Counted from the first letter of the stretch, positions 21,210 through 51,025 are shown. The stretch is DNA of 64,000 nt from an uncultured Gemmatimonadales bacterium (GCA_964473155.1 CAYYNT010000009.1:17121-81120); one strand, 5' to 3'. Numbers and translations are program-made. Notes: generated by a model not told the origin, from the sequence alone.

Positions 21210-21307
21210 AACAGCGCTTAAAGATCTGATTGCATATTATACGGCAGGCGGACGGCAGGCGGACAGCCTGCATCAGACACAACCTCCAAAAAGGAATGGT
21301 GATTACC

Positions 21308-22583: not shown

Positions 22584-22649
22584 ACGGTTATATCTTGATC
22601 TCTTCAAAATCATAAATCGGATGTGACATATCTTCGGCGGCAGCCTGCC

Positions 22650-24515: not shown

Positions 24516-24546
24516 GTGGTCTCCGTCAAGTCCAATATTCATCCGC

Positions 24547-30627: not shown

Positions 30628-30654
30628 TTGACATCGCAAGAGACAGACTATATT
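30628..30654 (+). promoter_or_regulatory. Candidate sigma70 promoter for the HTH-EIIA / Ehr operon
   Basis: TTGACA, a 15-nt spacer, then TATATT, inside an AT-rich ~400-bp intergenic island and ~40 nt upstream of the AAGAGAAGAGGG RBS. The spacer is shorter than the ideal 17. Confidence 0.3.
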
Positions 30655-30692
30655 TTATGTCTCAACCAAACACATGAAAAGAGAAGAGGGAA

Positions 30693-31400
30693 ATGCACTT
30701 ACACGTTCGCGACGTCGCCCGGATACTGAGCGTCTCCGAGAAGACAGTCTACCGCTGGATCAGCCAGGGGGCCATCCCGGCCTACCGTGTGCAGGACCAG
30801 TACCGGATCCACCGCGCCGAACTTCTGGAATGGGTCACCCAGCGCAAGATCAAGGTTTCCGAGGAAATTTTCCAGGAGCCCGAGGCCGCCGGTGAGCAGC
30901 CAGGACTGGCCCCGGCGCTGGAAGCCGGCGGTGTTTTCTACCGGGTGGACGGACGCGACCGGGATTCCGTGCTGCGCGAGGTTGTCAACTCGATGCGTCT
31001 GCCGGATGGAGTCGACCGGGAATTTCTGTATCAGATAATCCTGGCCCGCGAAAACATGTGCTCCACGGCCGTGGGTGACGGTATCGCCATCCCGCATCCC
31101 AGAAGCCCGATGGTCCTGCACGTGGCCCGTCCCTCGATCACTCTGTGCTTCCTGGAGCATCCGGTCGATTTCAGCGCCATGGACATGCAGCCGGTGCGCG
31201 TGCTTTTCACCCTGGTCAGCCCGACTGTCCGCGGCCATCTGGCGATGCTTTCACGCCTCTCCTTTGCAATCCACGATCAAGGTTTCAGGCAGGTGATCCT
31301 CACTCCCGGCACCCGGGAGGAAATCCTCCGCGAATCGCGGAGACTGGACGAAATGTTAGACAAACGGGCGCCCGGCGGCGAGAAACGGAATGTTGTGTAA
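30693..31400 (+). CDS. Transcriptional regulator: N-terminal MerR/excisionase-type HTH (HTH_17) fused to a PTS EIIA type-2 (PtsN/EIIA-Ntr-like) domain
   Basis: The N-terminus VRDVARILSVSEKTVYRWISQGAIPAYRV is a helix-turn-helix. The C-terminal domain has GDGIAIPHP (the phosphorylatable His of EIIA-2/PtsN proteins). Its stop is immediately followed by the GTG start of the next gene. Confidence 0.6.
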   Translation: MHLHVRDVARILSVSEKTVYRWISQGAIPAYRVQDQYRIHRAELLEWVTQRKIKVSEEIFQEPEAAGEQPGLAPALEAGGVFYRVDGRDRDSVLREVVNSMRLPDGVDREFLYQIILARENMCSTAVGDGIAIPHPRSPMVLHVARPSITLCFLEHPVDFSAMDMQPVRVLFTLVSPTVRGHLAMLSRLSFAIHDQGFRQVILTPGTREEILRESRRLDEMLDKRAPGGEKRNVV

Positions 31401-33395
31401 GTGACTGGACTTCTTTTCGTATCTCTTGTCTTCCTTCTCGCCGGTGGCGTTCTGGCGCTTGTTTTCAGCCGTTCCAGACTCTGGCCGGCCTGCTTTGGAG
31501 TGACCGGCGCGGTGCTGGGCAGCCTGTCCGGTCTGGCCGGCTCGATCCAGGCCCTTGCTGATGGCGTGTTCTGGAATTACCGCCTGGCCTGGTCCCTGCC
31601 CGGCGGATCGCTTAATGTAGGGATGGATCCGCTGTCCGCGTTCTTTCTTTTCACCCTGTTTCTGCTCACCGGACTGACCTCCATTTTCGGCCATGGATAC
31701 CTGGCCGCCCATACCGGTCACAGGAACCCGGGCATTTCCTGGTTCTTTTTCAATCTGCTGGCCGCCAGCATGGCGGTCGTGTTCATGGCGCGCAATGCGC
31801 TGCTGTTCCTGATCGCCTGGGAAGTCATGGCTGTCAGCTCATTCTTTCTCGTCACTTTCGAGCACGAAAAACCTCAGGTTCGCGGGGCGGGGTTCTCTTA
31901 TCTGGTGGCGACTCACCTGGGAACAGCTTTCCTGCTGCTGTTTTTTGTCATTCTGGCCGGGCAGACCGGCTCATTTGATTTCGGGAGCCATGCCGCGGCC
32001 GGAGTGTCCAGCGCCGGACTGCTTTTCATTCTGGCCCTGGTGGGATTTGGCTCCAAATCCGGTATCGCGCCTTTCCATGTCTGGCTGCCCGAGGCGCATC
32101 CCTCGGCTCCCAGCCATGTTTCGGCACTGATGTCGGGAGTAATGATCAAGACCGGAATTTATGGCCTCCTGCGCGCGACTATCCTGCTTGGCCCGCCGCC
32201 TGCCTGGTGGGGCTGGTGCCTGGTCGGGATCGGCCTGAGTTCTGGTTTCCTCGGCGTGCTGTTCGCTCTGGTCCAGCACGACCTGAAGCGCCTTCTGGCC
32301 TATCACAGCGTGGAGAATATCGGAATCATTTTCCTCGGGTTGGGCCTGGGCATGCTGGGCTGGCAGGCAGGCATTATCCCCCTGGCAGTCGCCGGGTTTG
32401 CCGGAGCGCTGTTTCATGTGCTGAATCACGCTGTTTTCAAGGGCCTTCTGTTTCTGGACACTGGGGCAGTGTTGCAGGCTGCCGGCGGACGGGAACTGGA
32501 CAGCCTGGGCGGTCTTTACCGGAGGATGCCCTGGACCGGCCTGAGTTTTCTTGCCGGGGCGGTGGCTATCTCGGGGCTGCCGCCGCTCAACGGCTTTATC
32601 AGCGAGTTTCTGATTTTCCGGGCGGGTCTTTCGGGCACGATACTCCCTCTTGGGAGTGTAACGGTCCCGTCATTGCTTGTAATCGGCGGACTGGGACTTA
32701 TCGGAGGACTGGCCGCCGCCTGTTTCGCCAAATTCTTCGGCGTCGTTTTTCTGGGCGAGCCGCGCGGCGAGGACACTGATAAGGTTAAGGATCCCGGTCT
32801 TGCAATGCGTCTGCCGTTGCTTTTCCTGGCCCTCCTGTGTCTCGGTCTTGCCCTGGCCTCTCCCTGGCTGCTGCCTTTCCTTGGCCCGGTGATTTCTGTC
32901 CTGACCGGGTTCGGTCAGGCGGCCGTCAGCGATTCGCTGACAGCTTTCAGCGCTTTACTGGTCTATATCAGCGCGTTTTCCGGCGCAGTAGTTGTTCTGT
33001 CCGCCGTTATTTTCATCGCGCGGCGATGGCTGCTGGCCCGGAGAAAAGTCGATTCGGCGGTTACCTGGGACTGTGGTTATTCCGCACCCTCGCCGCGCAT
33101 GCAATATACCGGCTCGTCCTTTGTGCGTCCGCTCTCCGCTCTTTTCCAGCCTTTACTGGCGGTGCGCCAGGAATATACCGCCCCCGAGGGAGTATTCCCC
33201 AAAAGAACGAGCCATCTGACCACGCATGCCCGGGACCTGTTCCGCTCGTTTTTCTATGATCCGCTGTTTCGGCTGATCAGCCGGACAGCGGGACGGTTTC
33301 TCTGGCTTCAGCACGGGAACATTCATCTCTACATTCTATATATAGCGGCCACCCTGTTTCTTCTGCTGATCTGGAAACTGGGGGTGGGCCTGTGA
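31401..33395 (+). CDS. NuoL/MnhA/HyfB-like proton-pumping antiporter-type membrane subunit (EhrA-like)
   Basis: ~16 TM helices, with the ...WEVMAVSSFFLV... and ...FHVWLPEAHPSAPSHVSALMSGVMIKTGIYGLLR... signature of complex-I antiporter-like subunits. GTG start. Confidence 0.8.
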   Translation: MTGLLFVSLVFLLAGGVLALVFSRSRLWPACFGVTGAVLGSLSGLAGSIQALADGVFWNYRLAWSLPGGSLNVGMDPLSAFFLFTLFLLTGLTSIFGHGYLAAHTGHRNPGISWFFFNLLAASMAVVFMARNALLFLIAWEVMAVSSFFLVTFEHEKPQVRGAGFSYLVATHLGTAFLLLFFVILAGQTGSFDFGSHAAAGVSSAGLLFILALVGFGSKSGIAPFHVWLPEAHPSAPSHVSALMSGVMIKTGIYGLLRATILLGPPPAWWGWCLVGIGLSSGFLGVLFALVQHDLKRLLAYHSVENIGIIFLGLGLGMLGWQAGIIPLAVAGFAGALFHVLNHAVFKGLLFLDTGAVLQAAGGRELDSLGGLYRRMPWTGLSFLAGAVAISGLPPLNGFISEFLIFRAGLSGTILPLGSVTVPSLLVIGGLGLIGGLAAACFAKFFGVVFLGEPRGEDTDKVKDPGLAMRLPLLFLALLCLGLALASPWLLPFLGPVISVLTGFGQAAVSDSLTAFSALLVYISAFSGAVVVLSAVIFIARRWLLARRKVDSAVTWDCGYSAPSPRMQYTGSSFVRPLSALFQPLLAVRQEYTAPEGVFPKRTSHLTTHARDLFRSFFYDPLFRLISRTAGRFLWLQHGNIHLYILYIAATLFLLLIWKLGVGL

Positions 33396-34300
33396 GAGTG
33401 AGCGGACTGGTCAGCCTTGTCATGGCCCTGGTTTTCAGCCCTCTGCTGATCGGAATAATCAATCGGGTCAAAGCCTTTTTCGCCGGACGGAGGGGCTTGC
33501 CGCTGCTGCAACTTTACCGCGACCTGGCCAAACTTCTTCGCAAAGGCGCGGTCTACAGCCGGACATCCACCTGGATTCTGCGTGCAGGCCCGGCCGCGGG
33601 GCTGATCTGCATAATGGCGGCAGCGGCCCTGACTCCTTTCGGCGGACGCTCCCTGTTCGGTTTCGAGGGCGACCTGGTCCTGTTCGCCGGGCTGCTCGCG
33701 CTGATGCGCTTCAGCACGGTGCTTGCCGCTCTGGACACCGGCTCCAGTTTCGAGGGAATGGGGGCGAGCCGGGAAATGCATTTTTCGGTGCTGGCCGAAC
33801 CGGCGCTCCTGCTTGGCCTGACTGTCCTGGCCACGGGGACCGGTTGTATTTCGCTCGGTGCGATATACAGCCGGCTGGGGATGGAGTTATGGCTCAAAGC
33901 CGCTCCGGCGCTGGTTCTGACAATCCTTGCCTTTTCCGTGGTCTTTCTGACTGAAAACGCGCGAATCCCGGTCGATGACCCCAACACGCACCTGGAACTG
34001 ACCATGATTCACGAAGTGATGGTGCTGGACCACTCAGGCCCCGATCTGGCGATCATCCAGTATGCCGCCGCCCTCAAGCTCTGGGTGCTGGGATGCCTGA
34101 TAGTGGGCATTCTGGCCCCGCTGCACAGCGGGATGTTGTGGCTGGACTGCCTGGTTTCTCTTGGCGGTTTGATGCTGTTAGCCGTGGGAGTGGGAGTGGT
34201 CGAATCATCCATGGCCCGGCTGCGCCTGATCAACGTTCCCCGTCTGCTGCTGGGGGCGATTGTTTTCAACGTACTCGCGCTGATTCTTATTCTTAAGTAA
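33392..34300 (+). CDS. NuoH/HycD/HyfC-like membrane subunit (EhrB-like)
   Basis: The N-terminal R(R)GLPLLQLYRDL..KLL.K matches the RxGP..(L)Q..AD..K motif of NuoH/HycD. Eight predicted TM helices. The GTGA overlap with the upstream stop suggests coupling. Confidence 0.7.
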   Translation: MRVSGLVSLVMALVFSPLLIGIINRVKAFFAGRRGLPLLQLYRDLAKLLRKGAVYSRTSTWILRAGPAAGLICIMAAAALTPFGGRSLFGFEGDLVLFAGLLALMRFSTVLAALDTGSSFEGMGASREMHFSVLAEPALLLGLTVLATGTGCISLGAIYSRLGMELWLKAAPALVLTILAFSVVFLTENARIPVDDPNTHLELTMIHEVMVLDHSGPDLAIIQYAAALKLWVLGCLIVGILAPLHSGMLWLDCLVSLGGLMLLAVGVGVVESSMARLRLINVPRLLLGAIVFNVLALILILK

Positions 34301-34312
34301 GAGGCGGCTGAC

Positions 34313-34957
34313 ATGCTTGTCCTGCTGGATTCCGTCATAGTGCTGGTTCTGGTGACCGACCTCCTTCTGCTCTCCTCGAGCCGGCTTAACTACTGCATAC
34401 GCATAGTAGCGTTCCAGGGGGCGCTGGTGGGCCTTCTCCCGCTGTTGCTGCATTTCAGCGAGATAGCAGTGCAGGTGCTGCTGATATCACTGGCCGGGAT
34501 AGTTCTCAAACTGCTCGTATTCCCCTGGCTGCTGCTGCGAGCCATGCGCGGCGCGGATGTCAGGAGGGAAATAGAACCCTACGTTGGCTATTCGCTGTCT
34601 CTGCTGGCGGGAGTGGGGATGCTGATCGCCGCGTTCTGGATCGGCTCCCGGTTACCTCTGACTATTGCCGGACTGCAGCCCTCAGTGATTCCGATGGCCT
34701 TTTTCAACATTTTCACCGGTCTTTTTCTGCTGATCAGCCGCAGAAAAGCCCTCACTCAGGTGCTGGGTTACCTGGTGATGGAGAACGGAATCTACATTTT
34801 CGGCGCCGTCGTAGTCGTCGAGGCCCCGCTGATGGTGGAGTTGGGCATTCTGCTGGATGTTTTCATGCTCGTTTTCGTCCTGGGCATCATTCTGTTTCAT
34901 ATCAGCCGGGATTTCGACCATCTGGACATCGACCGTCTCAGTGCGCTGAAAGACTGA
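34313..34957 (+). CDS. HyfE-like small membrane subunit (EhrC-like)
   Basis: ~214-aa hydrophobic protein with 6-7 TM helices, with the size and position of HyfE/MbhE-type subunits. Confidence 0.55.
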   Translation: MLVLLDSVIVLVLVTDLLLLSSSRLNYCIRIVAFQGALVGLLPLLLHFSEIAVQVLLISLAGIVLKLLVFPWLLLRAMRGADVRREIEPYVGYSLSLLAGVGMLIAAFWIGSRLPLTIAGLQPSVIPMAFFNIFTGLFLLISRRKALTQVLGYLVMENGIYIFGAVVVVEAPLMVELGILLDVFMLVFVLGIILFHISRDFDHLDIDRLSALKD

Positions 34958-35014
34958 GATAGTGAAAACGCTACGGCCGGTCACACACCGGACAGAATAC
35001 TGGAAAGCTGAACC

Positions 35015-36490
35015 ATGTTGATTGCCTTCTTTATATTGCCAGCCCTGGCAGGACTGCTGGCTCTCGTCATACACAACGATTCACTGCGGCGGGCGCTTCT
35101 GCTGTCTGTTGCAGGTATCCATCTGGCGCTGACCGCAACAGCCTGGTTCAAGCCACCTGTGTCTTCGCCGGTCGAGTATCTGAGTCTTGATCCGCTGGGT
35201 CTTCTTTTTCTGAGTATCCTGAGCTTGCTTTTTCTTTTTTCAGCTATCTATGCCAGTGGATATCTGAAAAGGGAAAGTGATTCGAACCAGCCCGACATTT
35301 TAGAGGGCACCTTTTTCGCGCGCTCCCAGGAAGCCGTATTCACCTGCTGTATGATGGAATTCCTGGCCACGATGTCCCTGGTGACGCTCTGCCAGCATTT
35401 CGGCCTTCTCTGGGTGGCGGTTGAGGCGACCACGCTGGTAAGCGCGCCCCTGATATATTATCACCGCAATCATCGCTCCCTCGAAGCGACCTGGAAGTAT
35501 CTGATTCTATGCTCGGTGGGCATCGCAATCGCCCTTCTCGGGAATTTTTTCCTGGCGGTCGCGGCCTCGGGCCATGAAGGGCATGAAACGCCTCTGGTGC
35601 TGAGACACCTGGTGCTGAGGGCCGGGGAATTGCATCCCCAATGGCTTAAAGGCGCTTTTTTGCTTCTTCTGGTGGGCTATGGGACCAAGATGGGCCTGGC
35701 CCCTATGCACTCCTGGCTGCCCGACGCCCACAGCGAATCGCCATCGTTCGTTTCGATGCTCCTTTCGGGCGCGCTCCTGAATTGCGCTTTCCTGGGCCTT
35801 CTGCGAATCTTCCAGGTCTGCAACGCCGCCGGGCTGGGTCAGTTCGCCCGCGAACTGATGGTCCTTTTCGGCTTCGTTTCTCTGGCCACGGCCGCCGTAT
35901 TCATCATACGCCAGACTGATTATAAGCGCATGCTGGCTTATTCCAGCGTGGAACACATGGGAATTCTGTGTCTTGGCGTGGGATTCGGCGGCGCGGGAGT
36001 GTTCGGAGCGCTGCTGCACGCGGTCAACCATTCTCTTACCAAGGGCATGCTTTTCCTTGTCGCGGGCAACCTTCTGAGCGCTTACAAGACGCGTAATATC
36101 GGCGAGGTCAGGGGGGCGCTGAATGTCCTGCCTGTTTCCGGGGCCTTGTGGCTGGCCGGGTTCCTGGCGATCACCGGGACTCCGCCATTCGGTCTGTTCA
36201 TCAGCGAATTCACTATCCTGCGCTCCCTGGTTGACGCGGGCAGCCTGGCTGCGGCAGGCGGTTACCTGCTCCTTCTGGGGATCATATTTGCCGGTATGGC
36301 CAATATCATGCTCAACATGTCGCAGGGAAAAAACGAGCGTGAAATGTCCCCCGCCTTGAGGGCCGAAGCCTCCAGTTCGGTTATCCCTCCGCTGTGCCTG
36401 GGAGCGCTGACTTTGATACTGGGCCTGTATCAGCCCGCTATGCTCGCAGAAAAACTTCAACAGGCAGCCCGTCTGCTGGGAGGGTTCTGA
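35015..36490 (+). CDS. NuoM/NuoN/HyfF-like antiporter-type membrane subunit (EhrD-like)
   Basis: ...MGLAPMHSWLPDAHSESPSFVSMLLSGALLNCAFLGLLR... and ...YSSVEHMGIL... are the conserved proton-pumping subunit core motifs. Confidence 0.8.
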   Translation: MLIAFFILPALAGLLALVIHNDSLRRALLLSVAGIHLALTATAWFKPPVSSPVEYLSLDPLGLLFLSILSLLFLFSAIYASGYLKRESDSNQPDILEGTFFARSQEAVFTCCMMEFLATMSLVTLCQHFGLLWVAVEATTLVSAPLIYYHRNHRSLEATWKYLILCSVGIAIALLGNFFLAVAASGHEGHETPLVLRHLVLRAGELHPQWLKGAFLLLLVGYGTKMGLAPMHSWLPDAHSESPSFVSMLLSGALLNCAFLGLLRIFQVCNAAGLGQFARELMVLFGFVSLATAAVFIIRQTDYKRMLAYSSVEHMGILCLGVGFGGAGVFGALLHAVNHSLTKGMLFLVAGNLLSAYKTRNIGEVRGALNVLPVSGALWLAGFLAITGTPPFGLFISEFTILRSLVDAGSLAAAGGYLLLLGIIFAGMANIMLNMSQGKNEREMSPALRAEASSSVIPPLCLGALTLILGLYQPAMLAEKLQQAARLLGGF

Positions 36491-38010
36491 TGAGTTTTGC
36501 GGACTGCGCGAGGCTGATGAACGGCCAGGCTGTCGCCTGCTCCTCGATCCCGGAATGCGGGATAGAAGATTTCCGCGAGGCGGTGCTGGTGGATATCGAA
36601 AGCGGGGCGCATCTCAGCGCCTTTTTCGGACAGGGCCGGCCGGACGGTAAAGTAAAGCTTTGGGCGGTTCTGGCCTGTCCCTCCCAAGGCGACCTGGCGG
36701 TCTATACCACCTGCGCCGGACAATCCTGGCCCTCACTGACGCCGGACTGTCCGCAGGCTCATCTGTTCGAGCGCGAGCTGTTCGAGCAGTGGGGAATAGT
36801 CCCGGAGGGCCATCCCTGGCTGAAACCTGTGCGGTTCCAGGCGCCATTCCGTAAACCGGACAGTCTGCCCGAAACCTGCAAAGCCCCGGAAATCGGAACG
36901 GATTACCAGTTTTTCCGTGTCGAGGGCGAGGAGGTGCACGAGGTGGCGGTGGGTCCGGTGCACGCCGGAATCATCGAGCCGGGCCACTTCCGCTTCCAGT
37001 GCAGCGGGGAGGAAGTGCTGCACCTGGAAATCGCACTGGGATACCAGCACCGGGGCGTCGAGCGTGCCATGCGCGGCGGGCCGGACAGGCGTTCGATACA
37101 TTATATGGAAACACTCGCGGGCGATACCACCGTGGGCCATGCCACGGCTTACTGCCAGACCCTGGAGGCGCTCTGCGGAACACGTCTCGGCGTCCGCGCG
37201 CAGACTCTGCGCGCCATAGCCCTGGAACTGGAGCGTATGGCAAACCACATCGGGGATCTGGGGGCGCTGGCCGGCGATGTGGGTTACTTGCCCACGGCGT
37301 CCTATTGCGGCCGCCTGCGCGGCGATGTCCTCAATCTGACAGCCCTGGTCTGTGGAAGCCGTTTCGGACGCGGCTGGATCAGGCCCGGCGGATCGGGGTT
37401 CGACATCGAGCCGCCGATGGCGGAGAAAATCGCCGCCCGCCTGAGAGAAATAATGAAAGACCTCGATGGAGCGGTAAAACTGCTCTGGAACACCCCCTCG
37501 GTGATGGCCCGTTTCGAGAAGATCGGTGTGCTGACTCCCGCCGTAGGAGAAGAGCTGGGGCTGGTCGGACCGGCGGCCCGGGCCTGCGGATTGTCGAGGG
37601 ATGTAAGGTTCGAGTTTCCGGCAGGCAAATACCGTTTCTCCCAGATACCGCTTTCCACCTGGTCCACCGGGGATGTGTTCGCCAGGGCCTGGGTGCGCTG
37701 GCTTGAGCTTCAGAGTTCGGCCGAGTTCATCCTGACGGAGCTTGGTTCGCTGCAGCCCGAGCCTGCGCTCAGGGAACCGGGCGTCCCGGCCCCGTTGTCA
37801 CTGGCGGTCTCGCTTGTCGAGGGCTGGCGCGGTGAAATATGCCACGTGGCCATTACCGATGAGCAGGGACGTTTCTCCAGCTACAAGGTGGCCGATCCGT
37901 CTTTCCATAACTGGACAGGGCTGGCGCTGGCCATGCGGGGCGGACAGATATCGGATTTCCCCTTATGCAACAAGAGTTTCAACCTGTCCTATTGCGGGCA
38001 CGATCTCTGA
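36490..38010 (+). CDS. NuoC-NuoD fusion-like large subunit (HycE/EchE-like) lacking the [NiFe]-binding cysteine motifs (EhrL-like)
   Basis: The N-terminal ~170 aa are NuoC-like. They are followed by GPVHAGIIEPGHFRF...LHLEIALGYQHRGVE (the NuoD / NiFe large-subunit core). Where group-4 hydrogenases have RxCGxC, this protein has ETLAGDTT. The C-terminus has DFPLCNKSFNLSYCGH instead of DPCxxC. The ATG overlaps the upstream stop (TGATG). Confidence 0.7.
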   Translation: MSFADCARLMNGQAVACSSIPECGIEDFREAVLVDIESGAHLSAFFGQGRPDGKVKLWAVLACPSQGDLAVYTTCAGQSWPSLTPDCPQAHLFERELFEQWGIVPEGHPWLKPVRFQAPFRKPDSLPETCKAPEIGTDYQFFRVEGEEVHEVAVGPVHAGIIEPGHFRFQCSGEEVLHLEIALGYQHRGVERAMRGGPDRRSIHYMETLAGDTTVGHATAYCQTLEALCGTRLGVRAQTLRAIALELERMANHIGDLGALAGDVGYLPTASYCGRLRGDVLNLTALVCGSRFGRGWIRPGGSGFDIEPPMAEKIAARLREIMKDLDGAVKLLWNTPSVMARFEKIGVLTPAVGEELGLVGPAARACGLSRDVRFEFPAGKYRFSQIPLSTWSTGDVFARAWVRWLELQSSAEFILTELGSLQPEPALREPGVPAPLSLAVSLVEGWRGEICHVAITDEQGRFSSYKVADPSFHNWTGLALAMRGGQISDFPLCNKSFNLSYCGHDL

Positions 38011-38019
38011 GGACGACAG

Positions 38020-38778
38020 ATGTTCAAGGTGCTGTTCGAAAGATTAAGCCAGGGACACCGGCGTTTCCCGTTCCTGAAAAAAACTCCGGTGCTGCCGGAG
38101 CGTTTCCGGGGCCTTCCGGCGCTTAATGCCGCTAAGGGTGAAGAATGCGGCGAAGCCCTCACCCAAGCCTGTCCGTACGGCGCCATTTCCGGCAAAGGGG
38201 AAACTCTTGCGATCGATCTGGGACGCTGCCTGTTCTGCGCGGATTGCAAGGCGGCCTGTCCCGGAGGAGCGGTTGAATTCAGCAACGATTACCGTCTGGC
38301 CGTGCGCCGGCGGGCAGACCTTGTGCTGCGCGATAATTGCCTTCATCTGGCCGAGGCGCTGGACAAAAAAGCCCGGAGCCTGTTCGGCCGCTCTCTGACA
38401 TTGAGACAGGTGAGCGCCGGAGGCTGCAACGCCTGCGAGGCGGATGTCAACGTGCTCAACACCCTGACTTACGATCTGGCCAGTTACGGCATACAGTTCG
38501 CCGCCTCACCCCGTCATGCGGATGGCCTCCTGGTGACTGGGCCGGTCACGGCCAATATGCGGCTGGCCCTGGAAAAAACCTGGCAGGCCGTGCCGGACCC
38601 GAAGATCGTGATCGCGGCCGGAGCCTGCGCCATCTCCGGCGGACCATACCGCGATCACCCGGAAACAGCGAACGGAGTCGATTCCGTATTGCCGGTCGAT
38701 CTTTACATCCCCGGCTGCCCGCCCCACCCCTGGACAATCCTGGACGGCCTTCTGCGCCTGCTGGGGCGGATACGCTGA
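38020..38778 (+). CDS. NuoB-like small subunit with N-terminal ferredoxin-like 4Fe-4S extension (EhrS-like)
   Basis: The N-terminus has CLFCADCKAACP (CxxCxxCxxxCP) plus a degenerate second motif. The C-terminal part has NuoB motifs: GGCNAC, FAASPRHADGLLVTGPVT, IAAGACAISGGPY and IPGCPP. That gives four Cys for a proximal cluster, but CxxC replaces the usual CC pair. Confidence 0.7.
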   Translation: MFKVLFERLSQGHRRFPFLKKTPVLPERFRGLPALNAAKGEECGEALTQACPYGAISGKGETLAIDLGRCLFCADCKAACPGGAVEFSNDYRLAVRRRADLVLRDNCLHLAEALDKKARSLFGRSLTLRQVSAGGCNACEADVNVLNTLTYDLASYGIQFAASPRHADGLLVTGPVTANMRLALEKTWQAVPDPKIVIAAGACAISGGPYRDHPETANGVDSVLPVDLYIPGCPPHPWTILDGLLRLLGRIR

Positions 38779-38783: not shown

Positions 38784-39764
38784 TTATCGATATTGTTTCT
38801 GTTTTAACTGATCTATACCCACGGCGGTGATTATAATCGCCCCGATAACGATATTCTGGACGTAATTCTCCACCCCCACCGCCTGGCAGCCGCTACGCAG
38901 GATCGAGATAACCAGCGCGCCCAGCACCGAGCCGATCACGCTCCCCTCCCCGCCGTTGAACGAGCCGCCGCCGATCACCACCGCGGCTATAATGTCAAGC
39001 TCCAGGCCGATCGCACCCGTCGGATCGCCCAGGTTGAGCGCCGAGAATGACATCACGCTGGACACCCCGGCCAGCAGCCCCCCCAGCGTATAGACCCATA
39101 CACGATGACTTTTCACCTTGACACCGCACAGGCGCGCCGTGGCCTCATTGGAGCCGACAGCATAGACATGCCGCCCGAACACGGTATAGCGCAGCACGAT
39201 ATACATCACCGCCAGCAGGGCTAACATCAGCCAGACCGCCGGGGCCACCGAATACCAGACATCCATGCGCGGCTCCACGGTCATCATTCCGTTCAGCCAG
39301 CTCGATGGCGTGTTGACAGTGGTCTGATGGGAAAGGCCCTTTGCCGCGCCCCGGGCTATCTGCATCATACCCAGGGTGACTATGAACGGCACGACCCGCA
39401 GATAGGCGATCATCAGCCCATTCAGCAGGCCGCAGAACGTGCAGACCAGGATTCCGGCCATGGCGGCGGCCAGCGGTAGCCAGATTCCCGGACTGTCCGC
39501 GCCCCAGCGGCGCAGCACAAGGGCGGTGACAACTGTCCCCAGCGCCACGAGCGAACCGGCGCTCAAATCTATCCCGGCGCTGATTATTATCACGGTCATG
39601 CCCAGAGCGGCGACACCGATTATCACGGTCTGGGTCAGGATAGTCTTGGTGTTGTACAGGGAATGAAACGTGTCCGGCGCGATGAAAAAGAACATCAGAT
39701 AAGTGAAAGTCAATCCGAGCAGCGGTCCAGAAAGGCCAAACAGTTTTCCGATCCTTTCGCGCAT
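38784..39764 (-). CDS. Sugar ABC transporter permease (RbsC/BPD_transp_2 family)
   Basis: ~10 TM helices, with a conserved ...GGVDLS.GS... type loop and overall ribose/xylose-type permease hydrophobicity pattern. Confidence 0.7.
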   Translation of the reverse strand: MRERIGKLFGLSGPLLGLTFTYLMFFFIAPDTFHSLYNTKTILTQTVIIGVAALGMTVIIISAGIDLSAGSLVALGTVVTALVLRRWGADSPGIWLPLAAAMAGILVCTFCGLLNGLMIAYLRVVPFIVTLGMMQIARGAAKGLSHQTTVNTPSSWLNGMMTVEPRMDVWYSVAPAVWLMLALLAVMYIVLRYTVFGRHVYAVGSNEATARLCGVKVKSHRVWVYTLGGLLAGVSSVMSFSALNLGDPTGAIGLELDIIAAVVIGGGSFNGGEGSVIGSVLGALVISILRSGCQAVGVENYVQNIVIGAIIITAVGIDQLKQKQYR

Positions 39765-39809
39765 GGCTTTTCAGTCTCCCGGTGATGTTGTTCGTGCACT
39801 TTCCAACTG

Positions 39810-41336
39810 TCACGCGGACATGCACTGAGAGGCTCCCGAGGTGGCGAACCGCATTATTTCCAGCTCTGTCCATTCCCTGACCTGACGGGCCGGGCTGAGT
39901 TCACCACGGTGCATCACGGCCAGTCTGTCGCAGACGCCGAGCAGTTCCGGCAGATAGGATGAGACTACCACTACCGCCTTGCCCTCGGCTGCCAGGCTGT
40001 CGATTAGACGGTATATCTCGACCTTGCTGCCCACGTCCACCCCGCGGGTCGGCTCATCCAGAAGGATTATCCCGTTGCCGCGTTCGAGAATCCGGGCGAA
40101 CGCAACTTTCTGCTGGTTCCCGCCCGAAAGGCCGCTCACTGTCTGATCCACGCCCAGGCAACGGATATTGAGCTCGCGGATCCAGCGCTCGACTGAAACA
40201 CGCTCGCGGTTCAGTCTCATCAGTCCCCAGCCGCGCGGCCTGGCATAGCGGCCGACAGAGGACAGAGTTGCGTTGAACCTGACCGGCAGGCGCTGGGCCA
40301 GCCCCTCGTCCTTGCGGTCCTCGCTCAGGAAATCGATTCCAAAACCCAGCGCAGATGACGGATCAAGACTCTCAACATGCAGCGCCGCTCCGTTTTCCAG
40401 GTGCAGCGTCCCCCCGGATGAGCGGTCCAGGCCGAATATACGGCGCAGAAGCTCGCTGCGCCCGGCCCCGACAAGTCCGAAAATCCCGAGCACTTCACCC
40501 CGGCGCAGTTCGAGCCGCATGGTTATTTCCCGGTTTCGGGGCGAGGTTTCTTCCATTTCCAGAACGACTCCGCCGATCTTGCGCTCGGACCGCGGGAACA
40601 TCTCGGTCAGGCTGCGGCCGACCATCATGCGTATGATCTCCGGCAGCGAGGTTTCGCTCATCCGGCCGCTGCCTGCCACCCGTCCATCGCGCAGGACAGT
40701 GTACGAATCCGCTATCTCCCGCACTTCCTCCAGGAAATGGCTGATATAGATCACCGCCACCCCGGAGTCCCTGAGCCTTCGGATCACCGCGAACAGCGCC
40801 TCCTTGTCCGGCGCGGCCAGCGAACTGGTCGGCTCGTCCATTATTATTACTTTAGCCACGCAGAGCAGGGACCGGGCGATCTCGACTATCTGCTGCAACC
40901 CGACTGCCAGCGTGCCGGCTTTTGCCTCAAGGGACAGGTCCGGGTGCTGAAGAAGGGCCAGCACCTCGGCGATCCGGCCACGCTGGTTGCGGACAAAGCC
41001 CCAGGAGGAGCGCTCCACCCCCAGGGTCAGGTTCTCCTCGACCGAAAGGTGCGGGGCCAGGTTCAGTTCCTGGTAGATCATGCCGATACCCAGCCTGCGT
41101 CCCTCGGACGGCGAGCCGATCAGCCGGGCCTGCCCATCAAGAAGGATATCGCCACTGCTGGCCTGGTGCACCCCGCTGAGGATTTTCATCAGGGTGCTCT
41201 TGCCCGCGCCGTTCTCGCCGATCAGGGCGTGCACCTCTCCCCGGCGGACTTTCAGGTCCACGCCGTCCAGAGCGCGTGTCGCCCCGAAAGACTTGCAGAT
41301 GCCTTTCAGTTCAAGAATGTAATCCGTGTCCGCCAT
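39810..41336 (-). CDS. Sugar ABC transporter ATP-binding protein with duplicated ATPase domains (RbsA/MglA-like)
   Basis: Two sets of Walker A/B and LSGG signature motifs are present (GENGAGKSTLMK ... LSGGNQQK ... DEPT and a second set). The size is ~508 aa. Confidence 0.8.
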   Translation of the reverse strand: MADTDYILELKGICKSFGATRALDGVDLKVRRGEVHALIGENGAGKSTLMKILSGVHQASSGDILLDGQARLIGSPSEGRRLGIGMIYQELNLAPHLSVEENLTLGVERSSWGFVRNQRGRIAEVLALLQHPDLSLEAKAGTLAVGLQQIVEIARSLLCVAKVIIMDEPTSSLAAPDKEALFAVIRRLRDSGVAVIYISHFLEEVREIADSYTVLRDGRVAGSGRMSETSLPEIIRMMVGRSLTEMFPRSERKIGGVVLEMEETSPRNREITMRLELRRGEVLGIFGLVGAGRSELLRRIFGLDRSSGGTLHLENGAALHVESLDPSSALGFGIDFLSEDRKDEGLAQRLPVRFNATLSSVGRYARPRGWGLMRLNRERVSVERWIRELNIRCLGVDQTVSGLSGGNQQKVAFARILERGNGIILLDEPTRGVDVGSKVEIYRLIDSLAAEGKAVVVVSSYLPELLGVCDRLAVMHRGELSPARQVREWTELEIMRFATSGASQCMSA

Positions 41337-41361
41337 CCGATATTTCCGAGGAGAATAACGC

Positions 41362-42351
41362 TCACATGCCGGAAAGGTCAGGATTGACCAGCTTGCTAAT
41401 CTCCGGCGAATCCAGGTTATCCAGGCGCACCACGGCCAGGTTGGTGCTGATCCGCTCCGGCACTGCCTCGCCCTTTATCGCGGCGACAGCAGTTTTCACA
41501 CCCTGATAGCCCATATCGAACGGGTCCTGTGAGATAAGTGCCTGGATCGTCCCGGCGCGAAGGCCGTCGAGAAGGCCCCCGCTGGTGTCGAACCCCACGA
41601 AACTGATCTTGCCCGCCAGGCCCGAGTTCTCCAGAGCGCGCATCATACCGAACGTGCTGGACTCGTTGGGGCAGAATATGCCCTGAATTTCGCCGCCGAA
41701 CTTGTTAAGCAGTATCTGCGAGGCCTCCATGGCCGCCTGCTTTGTCACCCCGGCGTACTGATTGTCAGAGACCATCCGGATATCCGGAAAACTGGCTTTC
41801 ATCTCGTCCAGGAAACCCCGCTCGCGGTTGTCCGTGCTGGCCGAGCCCGGATTGTAGCGCAACATGATCGCCTTGCCCTTGCCGCCCATCATACGGCCCA
41901 GCTCGCGGGCCGCATCGCGCCCGCCCTGAAGGTTGTCCGTGGCGACAAAGCTTCTCTGGGCCGTGGATTTTAGGTCCGAGTCGATAATCACCACCGGGAT
42001 ATTGCGTTTGGCGGCCAGCTCCACGGGTGCCACCAGGGCCACCTCGTCCAGGGGCGCCAGGACTATCGCATCCACATGCCCGGCGATAAAATTCTGCACC
42101 ACATCTATCTGCTGCTTGCGGTCGTCCTCGTTTTCCGGCCCGATCCACTGGATTTCCATATCCGCCTCGGACGCTGCCCGCGCGGCCCCGGCGTGAACCG
42201 CTTTCCAGAACGGCTGGGCCGTTCCCTTGGGGATCACGGCAATACGCTTACGGCCTGGAGCAGCGGCCCGGTCTCCAGTCTGTTCACCGCCGGGGCTGCA
42301 GCCCAGGGCTGCCAGGAGCAGAAGCAGGACCGCCCGATATTTTAAAGACAT
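41362..42351 (-). CDS. Periplasmic sugar-binding lipoprotein (RbsB-like, Peripla_BP_4)
   Basis: Lipoprotein signal LLLLLAALGCSPG, then a type-I periplasmic binding protein pattern (IAVIPKG..QPFW..V..GA..AA...). The ATG (MSLKY) has a GAGGAG RBS. Confidence 0.7.
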   Translation of the reverse strand: MSLKYRAVLLLLLAALGCSPGGEQTGDRAAAPGRKRIAVIPKGTAQPFWKAVHAGAARAASEADMEIQWIGPENEDDRKQQIDVVQNFIAGHVDAIVLAPLDEVALVAPVELAAKRNIPVVIIDSDLKSTAQRSFVATDNLQGGRDAARELGRMMGGKGKAIMLRYNPGSASTDNRERGFLDEMKASFPDIRMVSDNQYAGVTKQAAMEASQILLNKFGGEIQGIFCPNESSTFGMMRALENSGLAGKISFVGFDTSGGLLDGLRAGTIQALISQDPFDMGYQGVKTAVAAIKGEAVPERISTNLAVVRLDNLDSPEISKLVNPDLSGM

Positions 42352-42462
42352 ACGGAACTCCTCTATTTTAATCGGCATAAACGGAACAGTTGAGGACTGG
42401 TGTCCCAGGAATAAGGACATCTCTGTCTTGTCGTGATTCAAAAATAAGATTGAAAAGACCTT

Positions 42463-45400
42463 TCACTCCCGTTCGCTGTCAAGCACCTTCCGGACCTTGT
42501 CAGCCAACTCTTTCATCGCGAACGGCTTCTGGATGAAATGCACACCTTCATCGAGAACCCCGTGGTGCGCGATTACATTTGCGGTATAGCCCGACATGAA
42601 AAGCCGCTTTATTCCGGGATACAAGGACAGCACTCTTTTTGCCAGATCGCGGCCGTTCATTTCTGGCATGATGACATCCGTGATCAGAAGGTGGATTTCG
42701 CCGGCATGCAACTCGGCCAGCCGGATTGCCTCGCCGGGTGTGGAGGCGGCCAGTACTTCATAGCCGAGACTCAACAGCATTCTCTGGCCCAGGTGCAGAA
42801 ATTCGGGTTCATCCTCCACCAGAAGGATACTTTCCCGGCCATGCGGGACAGGAGAAACAGGCCGCTCTTTCTGGAACTCCTCAGTCTTGGCCATATACCT
42901 GGGCAGATAAATCTTGAAAGTAGTGCCCCGTCCCAGTTCGCTGTACACATTTATGCAGCCGTTATTCTGCTTGACAATACCGTATACGGTAGCCAGCCCC
43001 AGCCCGGTGCCCTTGCCGATCTCCTTGGTCGTGAAAAACGGCTCGAACAGTTTGTCCTGCGTCTCTCTGTCCATCCCGCAACCGTTGTCGCTCAAGGATA
43101 GAACTACGTACTCCCCAGGTATATAGCCTGCATGATCCCTGCAATATGCCTCATCCAGCACGGCATTGTCCGTCTCGATAGTGATCTGGCCCACCCCAGC
43201 GATGGCGTCTCTCGCATTTACGCATAGATTGGCAAGAATCTGGTCTATCTGGCTGGGGTCCATCTTAATCGGTGACACTCTCGCTCCGGGGATCCAGGTA
43301 AGCTCTATGTCCTCACCGATCAAACGCCTCAGCATCTTGAGCATCCCCTCGACAGTCTCGTTCAGGTCGAGCACCTTTGGCGCGACAGTCTGTCTGCGGG
43401 CGAAAGCCAGCAGTTGCCTGGTCAGATTGGCCGAGCGCTCGGCGGCTTTCCGGATTTCCTGTATGTCGGCATAGAGAGGTTCCGAGGGATCGATCAGTTC
43501 CAATGCCAGCTCTGAATGACCGATAATAATCCCCAGCATATTGTTGAAATCGTGGGCCACTCCACCCGCCAGCCGCCCAACGGACTCCATTTTCTGCGCC
43601 TGGTTAAGCTGCGCCTGAAGCTTTTCCTTTTCCCGCTCGGCCTGTTTATGCTCTGTAACATCATGGATGATGAAATGAAGCAGGGCCTGACCTTTGACAT
43701 CGATTACGCTTGTATAGACCGCCACATCTCTGATCGAGCCATCGGCCAGCCGGTGCTGGAATTCAAAATAAATTCGCTTCTGCTCCCTGGCTTTCTCAAT
43801 CTCAGCTTTGACCAGTTCCGGAGAAATAGTGTTGATATCCTGAATAAACATCTGTCTGAGCTTTTCTTCCGGCCAGCCATAAAACCGCACCGCAGCTTCA
43901 TTGGCCTCGACAATTCTACCGTCCGCCGGATCGATGATCAGCTTGACGGCTGAGTGCTTATGGAAAAGATGGCGAAACTTTTCTTCGCTTTCTTTCAGTT
44001 CCTCTTCCGCCCGTTTACGCTCTGTTATATCGAAAATGAAGGCGACAAATACCGGATACCCTTCAGTCATCAACTGCAGGTGAATCTCCACCGGGTATAG
44101 TGTTTTATCCTTCCGGCGATGAAAAGTCTTGAAAACAATCACTTTTTCCTTGCCGGTCCGCAGCGGAGCAATCAGCCGGTCGAACATTTCAACCGTGAAT
44201 TCCGGTTTCAGGTCCAGGGGCGTCATTCCGCGCAGTTCATCAATCGTGTATCCCAGGTTTTCGCGCGCCCCCTGATTCACATTTATGAAACGAAGTGTTT
44301 CGGAATCGAAAATATAGATTTCATTGAGAGAAGACTCTATCAGGCGGCTGAAACGTACTATTTCCTGCTCTGTCCGTTTGCGCTCGGTTATGTCGCGCCA
44401 GATGCACTGGTAAACAGGTTCTCCCATTACATCTACAATTTGAGCTGTGACATGGACGTTCCTTGTCTCTCCCTGACTGGTGCGCTGCAGGGTCTCGAAA
44501 TCCGTCTTACCGTTCTGGATCACCCGCGCAATATGCTCCTGCGTATCTCCGGCTGTTTCCCTGGCTTCTATATCCGATATCTTCAGTTGCGCAAATTCTT
44601 CGCGGGTATATCCAAGCTGAGCGTGCGCCGCGGTGTTGAATTCAAGAAATCCTCCAGTGGACGTATCTATAATCAGAATACCGTCAGGAGATTGTTCGAA
44701 CAGCGTCCGTCTGCGGATTGATTGTTTTTCGAGTTCCTTTTCCGTCTTTTTGCGTTCAGTGATGTCCTTGGATGAACACATCACTGAAATAATTTCTCCT
44801 GCAACATCTTTTATCGGAGTTATCGTAGTCACGTAATACCGGTCAAAATCCGGGCGTGAAGCGTGTACTTCCATGATTTTTACCTCGCCGCTGCGAAGCA
44901 CCTCTTCAACGGATTCTGAACATCTATCCGCTTCCTTCTCTGAAAGAACGTCCCGGATTCTTTTCCCGATGACACTGTCGACCGCGACACCCACGCTTTC
45001 AGCAAAGGCTTTGTTGGCGTAGCTGTATTTCCCTTCAGGCGTCATAGAAAAAATCGGATCGGATGATTCCTCAAGAAGGAGCCGATGTTTCTCCTCGCTC
45101 TCACGCAACGCATTAATGTAGTGGATGGTATCTATCTGCTCCGACAGTATTTTGCCGGAAAGGATCGTCGCCAGCGGGTACAGCAATATCACAGGCAGGC
45201 CGATATGCTTTATTACAGTCACCCCCGCACCATCAGGCAGAGTGAACATCAGAGCAAGCATTGCCAGGTGAACAGCCAGACCGAACAGATATAGATTTTG
45301 CGAGGATGGAGATTTGACTTGAAGCTTTAGAAGGCCTCGAACCAGCAGTCCAATCAAGACCGATGAAAGAATAACCAGAATACCGGTCAGCAAGCCTGCG

Positions 45401-45690
45401 CCACCAATTAGAATTCGGCAGGCCACGGTCATTGCGCTCGATATAATTCCAGCCCAGGGACCGAAGTACAAAGCACAAAGGCTGACCATGACCGAACGGC
45501 CGTCAAATATCAGACCGGGGCCCATATTAAGCGGCCGAAGCATTCCTAACACCGCGCTCCCGCCGAATAAAAGACCCTGCAGTATGACTCCAGACAATGT
45601 GTTCCGCGGCCAGCGCTTTACGATGAAATTTGAAACTATGCTGAGAGCCACCAGCAATGCCAGGTTGAGCACCAAATCGAGATAAACCAT
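42463..45690 (-). CDS. Hybrid sensor kinase: N-terminal 5TMR-LYT membrane domain, multiple PAS domains, HisKA/HATPase_c and C-terminal receiver
   Basis: Five TM helices at the N-terminus, of the LytS-YhcK type. At least four PAS-like segments follow (repeated ...ITERK..E.E...). H-box VAHDFNNML, then N, G1 and G2 boxes. The terminal REC has VIMPEMNG. Confidence 0.8.
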
Positions 45691-48397: not shown

Positions 48398-48486
48398 ACA
48401 ACCCTCCAGGAAATATTCCGGTTCAAACGAGTTTCCCTCCGGCACGGAAGCAGGCGGGATAATATTTATCTGCCAGTCGGTTCAGT

Positions 48487-50791: not shown

Positions 50792-51025
50792 TACCGGGGA
50801 ATTTATGCTGTCACCTTGCTTTCGCAATCAAAAACAATATTCGAGCCGTTCTATCAATCCCCTGCAACAGGCGTCGAAGGTAAAAGTGAAAAGGTGAAGA
50901 ATAGAGCCGGAGGTGTCAAATCAGTTGCTTTTCCCGGCACATGTCTCTTAATTTCAAATGATGCCTGTATAATATGTGTTCTGATAACTGTCTGTATATG
51001 TTCTCCAATTCAGCCTGTGCGGCTT

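Follow-up and report, generated by a model that had tools for sequence, protein, structure and literature searches.

The window, a 64,000-nucleotide stretch of DNA from an uncultured Gemmatimonadales bacterium, contains a seven-gene operon (Table 1) that begins with an HTH-EIIA regulator, continues with genes for HyfB-, NuoH-, HyfE-, and HyfF-like membrane subunits, and closes with a large subunit (L) and, last, a small subunit (S). Positions 31401-38778 encode a self-contained six-subunit membrane complex, preceded by the co-transcribed regulator. The reading frames are intact, tightly coupled, and provided with ribosome-binding sites; the stop codon of the regulator abuts the start of the HyfB-like gene, and the ATG of L, with the ribosome-binding site GGGAGGG, overlaps the TGA of the gene upstream. 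Comparison with locus L081 yielded dN/dS values of 0.03 to 0.19 for all seven genes, indicating purifying selection; the value for the regulator, which shares 97% amino acid identity with its L081 counterpart, was 0.03. The His motif of the regulator is kept in 23 homologues, and in about 26 of 80 loci a regulator gene immediately precedes the HyfB-like one. A scan of 20 large neighboring ORFs in the window revealed no hyp, formate dehydrogenase, or NuoEFG genes, nor was HycB/HyfA found near the operon, either in the scanned ORFs or in the flanks; the flanks of the 80 loci contain no other conserved genes and no recurring NuoEFG cluster. Since hyp genes could lie elsewhere in the genome, their absence from the 64 kb window is weak evidence.

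Table 1. Genes and sequence features of the operon, numbered from the first nucleotide of the window
Feature	Position	Strand	Basis
Promoter-like site TTGACA-17-TATTTT, 10/12 matches, before the first operon gene	30628..30656	+	Consensus match alone, no sign of function
Regulator: HTH_17 and PTS EIIA-2 domain with GIAIPH phospho-His motif	30693..31400	+	Pfam PF12728, PF00359
EhrA-like antiporter-type membrane subunit (HyfB/HycC/NuoL-like), 664 aa	31401..33395	+	NCBIfam hydrogenase 4 subunit B, 626 bits
EhrB-like NuoH/HycD-type membrane subunit, 302 aa	33392..34300	+	Pfam PF00146
EhrC-like HyfE-type membrane subunit, 214 aa, C-terminal part NuoK-like	34313..34957	+	NCBIfam hydrogenase 4 membrane subunit; Pfam PF00420
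EhrD-like antiporter-type membrane subunit (HyfF/NuoM/N-like), 491 aa	35015..36490	+	NCBIfam hydrogenase 4 subunit F
L (EhrL): large subunit, NuoC-NuoD fusion like HycE, 506 aa, without NiFe cysteines	36490..38010	+	Pfam, alignment, Foldseek
L beta1-beta2 loop GPVHAGIIEPGHFRF, residues 155-169	36952..36996	+	HycE/Nqo4 alignment
L former L1 NiFe motif ETLAGDTTVGH, residues 207-217	37108..37140	+	Alignment to HycE
L former L2 NiFe motif and C-terminus CNKSFNLSYCGHDL, residues 493-506	37966..38007	+	Alignment to HycE
S (EhrS): HycF/NuoI-like ferredoxin domain (~1-110) fused to HycG/MbhJ/NuoB-like domain (~120-252), 252 aa	38020..38778	+	Pfam, profiles, PDB matches
S degenerate first ferredoxin motif GEECGEALTQACP, residues 40-52	38137..38175	+	Homologue alignment
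S complete second ferredoxin motif CLFCADCKAACP, residues 70-81, CxxCxxCxxxCP	38227..38262	+	Homologue alignment
S GGCNAC, residues 134-139, ligands C136 and C139 of N2-like [4Fe-4S] cluster	38419..38436	+	MbhJ/HycG alignment
S other two N2-like ligands, C203 and C233	38626-38628; 38716-38718	+	Alignment

Among the membrane subunits, the HyfB-like protein matches HycC (7z0s_C) with E = 1e-70, and all 60 sequences compared share its residues E141, K219, H343, K347, and E402 (59 share K250). In the HyfF-like protein, K225 and E398 align with NuoM K234 and E407, and N256 occupies the position of NuoM K265. The TM5 Glu, the TM7 and TM8 Lys, and the TM12 Glu are conserved; the two antiporter-like subunits keep the Glu and Lys residues with which complex I and Mrp translocate ions. 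The NuoH-like gene is syntenic in related loci.

Large subunit

L comprises domains PF00329 and PF00346, and the close homologue P0121, also 506 aa long, covers 100% of it in alignment. HycE is the best solved relative (E = 2.8e-43), and the fold matches that of HycE (7z0s_E) with a TM score of 0.85 in Foldseek. All of the sequence features named in the initial annotation are present where it placed them, and its reading of L as lacking the NiFe cysteines held after proper alignment. The group-4 hydrogenase L1 (RxCGxCxxxH) and L2 (DPCxxCxxH/R) Cys pairs are absent from L in the HycE alignment: ETLAGDTTVGH aligns by HMMER on HycE DRVCGICGFAH, with Ala210 at Cys241 and Thr213 at Cys244; NLSY aligns on DPCY, with Ser500 at Cys531; and Gly503 falls on Cys534 when the alignment is extended, ungapped, by two residues. 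These replacements are family-wide, being found in close homologues and wider representatives, and Cys is absent from the four NiFe positions in 79 of 90 family representatives. With other residues in place of every Cys ligand, L cannot bind a NiFe cofactor, and the complex is predicted not to be a hydrogenase. The last residue of L aligns with the HycE maturation cleavage site, Arg537, so that L ends where mature HycE ends, without the C-terminal extension that FHL-type maturation involves together with an endopeptidase.

The scaffold around the lost site is of hydrogenase type. The GPVHAGIIEPGHFRF loop, which has pLDDT < 50 in the structure model, is invariant in 121 sequences and is common to relatives that retain the four cysteines; it is itself hydrogenase-type. 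In an ungapped alignment with complex I (Nqo4), Ile162 of this loop takes the place of His38 and Gly211 that of Tyr87, both invariant among 121 close homologues. The nearest four-Cys relatives, P0487 and P0496 (36-38% identity), have the GPxHAGIIEPGHFRF and DFPLxNKSFNL scaffold in common with L, which looks like a Hyf/4f-type hydrogenase after loss of its metal site.

L terminates in C493-x8-C502-G-H504-D-L, and the initial annotation had singled out this C-x8-C-G-H tail as non-canonical. The tail is present, and Asp212, Cys493, Cys502, and His504 are all invariant or nearly so among 120 homologues with at least 60% identity; across 90 diverse representatives, however, C493 is found in 56, C502 in 41, and H504 in 31, and the G. 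pickeringii tail reads CGFDL. By these counts, the tail is clade-specific rather than a family-wide site. Of the tail and the xGD motif, only the xGD Asp (Asp212) is Ehr-specific, as it is found in 81 of the 90 representatives and is absent from the four-Cys relatives.

Small subunit

The start of S is preceded by GAGGA 6 nt upstream, and 120 homologues show a conserved N-terminus beginning at Met1, so that the start is not mis-called. The HycF, HyfH, and NuoI profiles match residues 1-105, as does HycF in the PDB (7z0s_F); the proposed N-terminal extension is genuine, an Fe-S domain derived from HycF/NuoI. Counted across homologues, this domain contains 8 Cys in about 119 of 121. In the window copy, Gly40 and Leu47 replace cysteines of motif 1 that are present in the close relative P0001 (C40, C43, C47, C51) and in the family consensus, and Cys43 and Cys51 are kept; the second Cys of this motif lies at position 43 in the clade of S and at 44 in the family. 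The loss of these two ligands appears to be peculiar to this genome. In motif 2, C70, C73, C76, and C80 align, from the alignment ranges, to Nqo9 C98, C101, C104, and C108.

MbhJ and HycG are the best solved relatives of S, with MbhJ the top sequence match of the NuoB-like domain. The initial annotation had taken GGCNAC as an unusual, intermediate mark. The CxxC spacing is unusual only when set against complex I NuoB and is normal in group-4 small subunits: GGCNAC aligns with MbhJ GSCNGC and HycG GGCNGC, and a tandem CC is found only in complex I, where Nqo6 'glaCCaie' aligns to 'aggCnaCea' of S. All four N2-like Cys are kept in 121 of 121 sequences (the window copy and 120 close homologues). 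The solved-structure matches of L and S have E values of 1e-31 to 1e-43, far beyond chance.

Family spread and relationship to known complexes

At least 596 species genomes carry the complex, a lower bound. Of 80 loci, which come from many phyla, most have these six genes in unchanged order, and homologues uphold 60-65% identity across phyla; the family search patterns also retrieved the Geobacteraceae loci L032, L034, L040, L044, and L047. Cluster content varies: motif 1 lacks its cluster in the window copy and Geobacter, motif 2 in Gemmatimonadota, and the whole ferredoxin insert is missing in Omnitrophota. In four loci (L012, L018, L037, and L059), three of the four N2-like Cys ligands are lost with the reading frame intact; L in these loci keeps the conserved motifs, which include the search patterns that fetched the loci. 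If every member depended on electrons reaching L, such loss would be difficult to explain.

The L/S pair is very probably the peripheral arm of an Ehr (Ech- or energy-converting-hydrogenase-related) complex, a type already described (Coppi 2005; Marreiros 2013). Ehr is defined by a large subunit homologous to that of group-4 [NiFe]-hydrogenases without the NiFe Cys ligands (PMC6349859, PMC10284858, PMC10432482), and L is such a subunit. The cluster, with NuoL/HyfB-, NuoH-, HyfE-, and antiporter-like subunits plus L and S, corresponds to Geobacter GSU0739-45, and the subunits of the window and of the G. pickeringii locus L084 fit the EhrA-1/EhrC/EhrL/EhrS naming used for these G. sulfurreducens genes (PMC7894505, PMC8691401). 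L is 57% identical over its full length to its G. pickeringii orthologue P0335, which has the same motifs; the Geobacter comparison is with G. pickeringii and Geobacter MAGs rather than with the G. sulfurreducens protein. L084 has the same subunit types and order as the window (NuoL/HyfB-, NuoH-, HyfE-, HyfF-like, L, S), the same xAGDT and NKSFNLSYCG motifs in L, and an S whose N-terminal ferredoxin remnant likewise has only the Cys51/70/73/76-type ligand set. It differs in an additional HyfB-like gene with divergent transcription, in the lack of a neighboring HTH-EIIA regulator, in the CGFDL tail of L (CGHDL in the window), and in S motif 1, which is wholly gone, whereas the window S retains Cys43. 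When G. sulfurreducens grows on formate, its Ehr subunits are abundant (PMC7894505).

Of solved complexes, E. coli FHL/hydrogenase 4 (HycCDEFG, HyfBCEFGHI; PDB 7Z0S) provides the best relatives of L, S, and the HyfB-like subunit, and has the NuoC-NuoD fusion, the small-subunit CxxC, and the EPGHFR loop in common with the window complex; the latter differs in lacking NiFe Cys, in the fusion of HycF with HycG (the HycF part being cut to ~110 aa), and in the absence of HycB/HyfA, formate dehydrogenase, and hyp genes near the operon. Pyrococcus furiosus Mbh (PDB 6CFW) shares the CxxC type through MbhJ, and the HyfF-like subunit has its nearest solved relative in MbhH, but Mbh differs in its NiFe Cys, its Mrp-type sodium module, and its ferredoxin subunit MbhN, which is a separate protein. 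MBS/MBX of Thermococcales (PDB 6U8Y) is likewise hydrogenase-derived without a functional NiFe site, yet it is distant from L (MbsL, 6u8y_L, a weak E = 1.2e-14 vs. 2.8e-43 for HycE) and its subunit set differs. Complex I (NuoB, NuoCD, NuoH, NuoI, NuoL/M/N) shares the homologous core, the conserved antiporter-channel residues, and the absence of a NiFe site, whereas the window complex has NuoI and NuoB fused, and L is nearer HycE than NuoD in sequence and fold. Two class assignments were rejected: as a group 4 [NiFe]-hydrogenase, since the L1/L2 Cys pairs are missing even though the small-subunit CxxC...C...C is present, and as complex I, since the tandem CC, His38/Tyr87, and NuoEFG are all absent (alignments; scanned ORFs). 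The window complex appears to have no canonical complex I quinone site and no complex-I-specific feature.

Discussion

The operon encodes an ordinary representative of the known and widespread Ehr family of membrane complexes. The complex has no NiFe site, descends from Hyf/FHL-type group-4 [NiFe]-hydrogenases, and is derived rather than a hybrid. The initial annotation had proposed an intermediate between complex I and group-4 hydrogenases; a link between the two was published for Ehr by Marreiros et al. 2013, as cited in PMC4758237 and PMC6349859, so this part of the idea is, on those citations, a rediscovery and not new, and the intermediate character itself fell away, as CxxC is no marker of it and complex-I-specific features are missing.

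That the operon is a decaying, non-functional hydrogenase remnant is strongly disfavored. Such a remnant would account for the loss of the catalytic Cys and, in this genome, of two ferredoxin ligands, and Geobacter Ehr has been called non-functional in one paper (PMC13194489); against it stand the low dN/dS of all seven genes, their intact, coupled frames, the identity kept across phyla, and the expression and regulation of the Geobacter subunits (PMC7894505, PMC8691401). The initial annotation suggested that a different substrate might bind where NiFe formerly sat. It is very unlikely that Asp212, Cys493, Cys502, and His504 form a new site there for a metal or a substrate. Their near-invariance among close homologues, the Ehr-specific Asp212, and the cavity that small residues could leave in place of the four Cys ligands speak for such a site, but the three tail residues are not conserved in the wider family, Geobacter included, and NKSFNL and EPGHFRF are inherited hydrogenase scaffold, also present in four-Cys relatives.

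A ferredoxin:quinone oxidoreductase that operates in the manner of complex I or cyanobacterial NDH-1 and binds menaquinone in the L/S/NuoH pocket seems unlikely. Comammox Nitrospira, NC10/Methylomirabilis, Gemmatimonadota, and Acidobacteriota are respiratory, quinone-containing groups. Many hosts belong to them: Ehr is reported from comammox Nitrospira (PMC10284858), our homologue matches include NC10/Methylomirabilis, and our loci include Gemmatimonadota and Acidobacteriota; the complex includes a NuoH-like subunit and the conserved loop, and a possible interaction of Ehr with quinones has been suggested (bioRxiv 10.1101/765248). However, the complex I head-group ligands are invariantly replaced among the 121 sequences, S has no tandem CC, and quinone biosynthesis is lacking in some Ehr hosts, as in Riflemargulisbacteria with Ehr (PMC6349859). 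The latter hosts would fit a redox-independent or merely redox-sensing cation/proton transporter, its peripheral arm capping an Mrp-like membrane module in a structural or regulatory role and its Fe-S clusters vestigial, and so would the independent loss of each of the three clusters in different lineages, the N2-like one included, and the lack of a conserved redox partner in the flanks. The PTS-EIIA domain of the co-transcribed regulator points the same way; K+ transport in E. coli is controlled by EIIA-Ntr proteins. Such a transporter is nonetheless quite unlikely, as the N2-like Cys are complete in the window copy and in 120 of 120 close homologues, the nearly universal 8-Cys ferredoxin domain indicates strong purifying selection on the clusters, and lineages without clusters might hold a second, intact copy (L042 has two copies).

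We tentatively favor, at somewhat less than even odds, an ion-translocating oxidoreductase with an Fe-S relay as input and electron-to-ion coupling. In this oxidoreductase, the ferredoxin domain of S, in which only one of two clusters keeps a full ligand set here (Cys51, Cys70, Cys73, and Cys76), would be reduced by a soluble donor of low potential that resembles ferredoxin, as in Ech, Mbh, and FHL. Electrons would pass to the N2-like cluster and on to a putative acceptor in the former NiFe pocket, which would be lined by small residues and the Ehr-specific Asp212 at the interface of L, S, and the NuoH-like subunit. Through the conserved GPVHAGIIEPGHFRF loop, this possibly reversible reaction may be coupled to the transport of H+ or Na+ in the HyfB- and HyfF-like subunits.

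Operon organization and family assignment

The genes for the large subunit (L) and the small subunit (S) are the final two of a tightly packed plus-strand operon, which starts with a putative regulator gene that combines a helix-turn-helix and a PTS-EIIA domain (HTH-EIIA) and continues with four genes for membrane subunits. [quoted passage not shown] This comparison rests on G. pickeringii in place of Geobacter sulfurreducens, in which GSU0739-45 encode EhrA-1, EhrC, EhrL, and EhrS (PMC7894505, PMC8691401); Geobacter Ehr subunits have been reported to be expressed and formate-responsive (PMC7894505). Geobacteraceae loci were also among those recovered with the family patterns. The locus thus belongs to a known family and adds no new kind of system. 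Homologues of L and of S at 60-70% identity number in the thousands for each protein and come from many phyla. When one genome per species was scanned, at least 596 species were found to encode Ehr, and the order of the six structural genes is kept in most of 80 fetched loci.

All seven operon genes show dN/dS values of 0.03-0.19 relative to locus L081, an 88%-identical relative, which indicates purifying selection and led us to reject pseudogenisation of the operon. The flanks of the module are wholly different in L081; the Ehr module therefore moves as a self-contained unit. Clustering of all flank ORFs of the 80 loci, in which antisense ORFs produced by the crude ORF caller in GC-rich loci were disregarded, yielded nothing recurrent apart from the six subunit genes and the regulator gene, i.e., no conserved redox partner, and no hyp, formate dehydrogenase, or NuoEFG domains were found among 20 large neighbouring ORFs scanned in the window.

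Within the module, conservation relative to L081 is highest for the HTH-EIIA regulator (97% amino acid identity, dN/dS of 0.03), which has kept the GIAIPH phospho-histidine motif, including the conserved histidine. In about 26 of the 80 loci (as counted from the locus table), which come from many phyla, the regulator gene is the immediate upstream neighbour of the HyfB-like gene. A PTS-EIIA transcription factor thus often travels with the Ehr operon, which suggests that Ehr may be controlled by PTS(Ntr)-type phosphorylation.

Elsewhere in the window, the region directly downstream of the operon is convergent with it and resembles, by sequence appearance, a ribose-type ABC transporter with a multi-PAS hybrid histidine kinase; one ORF is an unusual fusion or else a pair of genes merged in a single ORF call, and five long ORFs (413-767 aa) had no Pfam match at E <= 1e-5.

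Features of the window and small-subunit genes of related loci that lack most ligands of the N2-like cluster
Feature	Position	Strand	Observation
Promoter-like site	30628-30656	+	ahead of HTH-EIIA gene; sequence match only
HTH_17 + PTS-EIIA-2 protein	30693-31400	+	domain profile matches; stop codon abuts next start
HyfB/NuoL-like subunit	31401-33395	+	domain profile matches
NuoH/HycD-like subunit	33392-34300	+	domain profile matches
HyfE-like subunit	34313-34957	+	domain profile matches
HyfF/NuoM-like subunit	35015-36490	+	domain profile matches
Large subunit L, 506 aa	36490-38010	+	start ATG overlaps preceding TGA; GGGAGGG ribosome-binding site
L beta1-beta2 loop, residues 155-169	36952-36996	+	conserved, low model confidence
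L C-terminal tail, residues 493-506	37966-38007	+	conserved, low model confidence
Small subunit S, 252 aa	38020-38778	+	GAGGA 6 nt upstream of start
Convergent downstream region	38784-45690	-	three ABC transporter-like ORFs (permease, ATPase, binding protein); 1075-aa kinase-like ORF
906-aa ORF	57924-60644	+	SAM-methyltransferase domain (residues 93-193); TonB-dependent-receptor Plug domain (306-402)
ORF without Pfam match	21230-22531
ORF without Pfam match	22623-24560		strand uncertain because antisense ORF 22650-24566 overlaps almost all of it
ORF without Pfam match	46142-48445
ORF without Pfam match	48487-50406
ORF without Pfam match	50816-52057
N2-poor S gene, L012	11541-12314
N2-poor S gene, L018	11542-12363
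N2-poor S gene, L037	5185-5976
N2-poor S gene, L059	11572-12408

Large subunit and the former NiFe site

Among solved structures, L matched Escherichia coli HycE best (E = 2.8e-43), with Thermus Nqo4 and then Pyrococcus MbhL as the next best matches. The absence of NiFe cysteines, as proposed in the initial annotation, was borne out by the HycE alignment, which places DRVCGICGFAH opposite ETLAGDTTVGH and DPCY opposite NLSY; allowing for the PDB sequence being offset by 12 residues, HycE Cys241, Cys244, and Cys531 correspond to Ala210, Thr213, and Ser500 of L, and Cys534 corresponds to Gly503 via an ungapped extension of two residues. The last residue of L aligns with Arg537 of HycE, where HycE is cleaved during maturation. 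An AlphaFold model of L (pLDDT 82, pTM 0.88) was placed by Foldseek at a TM score of 0.85 to HycE and about 0.77 to E. coli NuoCD, with pLDDT below 50 in three stretches (residues 132-139, 155-165, and 493-506). Confidence in this model is lowest in the beta1-beta2 loop and in the tail at the C-terminus, both of which are strongly conserved, a combination that fits elements that are probably disordered until they contact S, the NuoH-like subunit, or a ligand in the assembled complex.

Three segments, ETLAGDT(T/S)xGH, GPVHAGIIEPGHFRF, and FPLCNKSFNLSYCGHDL, are near-invariant in 120 homologues with at least 60% identity. For a wider view, 50%-identity cluster representatives were searched (896 proteins at E <= 1e-30), and 90 usable, mostly full-length proteins were scored; 79 of these have no cysteine at the four NiFe positions, nine have one, and two have all four. 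The latter two proteins, P0487 and P0496, are the nearest four-cysteine relatives (36-38% identity to L) and carry the motif ERVCGACSFSH...DFPLVNKSFNLCYSCTDR; they represent candidates for the hydrogenase lineage that gave rise to Ehr. Since P0487 and P0496 also carry DFPLxNKSFNLCYSCTD and the GPxHAGIIEPGHFRF loop in common with Ehr, motifs of the EPGHFRF and NKSFNL type belong to scaffold inherited from hydrogenases and do not constitute a site built anew. The C-x8-C-G-H tail pointed out in the initial annotation is present but does not extend across the family; it is clade-specific, with C493, C502, and H504 found in 56, 41, and 31 of the 90 representatives, respectively. Asp212 is found in 81/90 representatives and is missing from the four-cysteine relatives; judged from these alignments, it is the only Ehr-specific residue at the old active site.

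Small subunit and its ferredoxin domain

S resembles MbhJ and HycG in its C-terminal half (E of approximately 1e-31, with Foldseek in agreement) and, in residues 1-105, the profiles of HycF, HyfH, and NuoI as well as the sequence of the HycF structure, which confirms an N-terminal ferredoxin-like fusion with CxxCxxCxxxCP at residues 70-81. A mis-called start of S was ruled out by the ribosome-binding site upstream and by conservation of the N-terminus in homologues. GGCNAC is present in S as noted initially and aligns with GSCNGC of MbhJ and GGCNGC of HycG, while CC occurs at this position only in Nqo6; because both hydrogenases share CxxC, this pair is the normal hydrogenase state and does not mark an intermediate. 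The alignment also places Ile162 and Gly211 of L at the positions of the Nqo4 quinone ligands His38 and Tyr87, and the Ehr complex of the window hence has no complex-I-specific feature. With its hydrogenase-type scaffold, it is a derived Hyf/4f-type hydrogenase rather than the structural intermediate between complex I and group-4 hydrogenases that had been suggested; the initial interpretation is thus partly supported and in essence repeats the published view.

Checking the cysteines of the ferredoxin domain across homologues gave a family consensus with two complete motifs, C-x3-C-x2-C-x3-CP (motif 1) and CxxCxxCxxxCP (motif 2). In S of the window, Gly40 and Leu47 occupy positions that are cysteine in both this consensus and the closest relative, P0001 (88% identity), and its motif 1 retains Cys43 and Cys51; the second motif-1 cysteine is at position 44 in the family and at position 43 in the clade of the window and P0001, both of which have Gly44. 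At the codon level, TGC became GGT and TGT became CTC, and a single-base sequencing error was ruled out because the change from Cys47 to Leu requires two base changes. By the ferredoxin ligation rule, Cys51 together with Cys70, Cys73, and Cys76 would form one complete Fe-S site, and the second site would be down to two of four ligands. Alignment ranges place S Cys70/73/76/80 at Nqo9 Cys98/101/104/108, and from the Thermus thermophilus structure and the ligation rule the retained site is presumably N6b-like, i.e., the cluster adjoining N2. Relative to L081, dN/dS is 0.24 for residues 1-110 and 0.06 for residues 111-252 of S; the N2-like (proximal) cluster site is intact.

Fe-S cluster complement across the family

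Among the 80 loci, motif-1 loss of the window type is also found in a Geobacter clade (L044 and L047, which have the CPYGA of the window in common), as well as in L055 and the second of the two L042 copies. Motif-2 ligands are gone in Gemmatimonadota loci (L069, L076, L080), and the whole ferredoxin insert is gone in Omnitrophota loci (L074, L078). In four loci from some Planctomycetota and Verrucomicrobiota (L012, L018, L037, L059), three of the four N2-like cysteine ligands are gone from a single uninterrupted frame (e.g., AGGSGACEAD, GAEAISGG, and PGWPPHP at these positions in L012) and both ferredoxin motifs of S are retained; the adjacent L keeps EPGHFRF, xGD, and NKSFNLSY, of which EPGHFRF and NKSFNLS belonged to the search patterns. 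Four further apparent N2-like losses with zero to two cysteines (L020, L007, L026, L054) were discarded as frameshifted assemblies. Each of the three Fe-S clusters of S thus appears to be dispensable within the Ehr family, in which the complement is lineage-specific.

Proposed mechanism and significance

In the HyfB-like subunit, E141, K219, H343, K347, and E402 are invariant in 60/60 sequences and K250 is found in 59/60; the HyfF-like subunit has E137, K225, K343, and E398, for which the alignment gives NuoM K234, E407, and equivalent residues as counterparts. The membrane arm appears capable of translocating ions. In the best-supported account, a soluble low-potential donor would reduce the ferredoxin domain of S, electrons would pass via the N2-like cluster to an acceptor in the former NiFe pocket, and this reaction would be coupled to movement of H+ or Na+. 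The main evidence against this account is the mosaic loss of clusters, which keeps alive a reading of Ehr as a machine resembling complex I in which ion transport or homeostasis is the conserved function and redox chemistry is optional, with the clusters, where present, serving only as a redox gate. Conservation of Asp212 and, where examined, of the ion-channel residues of the membrane arm despite cluster losses is consistent with this transporter reading, and the frequent co-transcription of the PTS-EIIA regulator is suggestive for it; overall, we nevertheless consider it improbable and favor the donor-to-acceptor account.

Ehr complexes have been known for approximately 20 years, are strongly conserved, and occur widely, with at least 596 species genomes that encode them in a single representative set and with protein clusters numbering in the thousands. 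The mosaic Fe-S complement, Asp212, the status of the tail and scaffold motifs, and the EIIA regulator each give an experimental handle on the bioenergetic role of these complexes.
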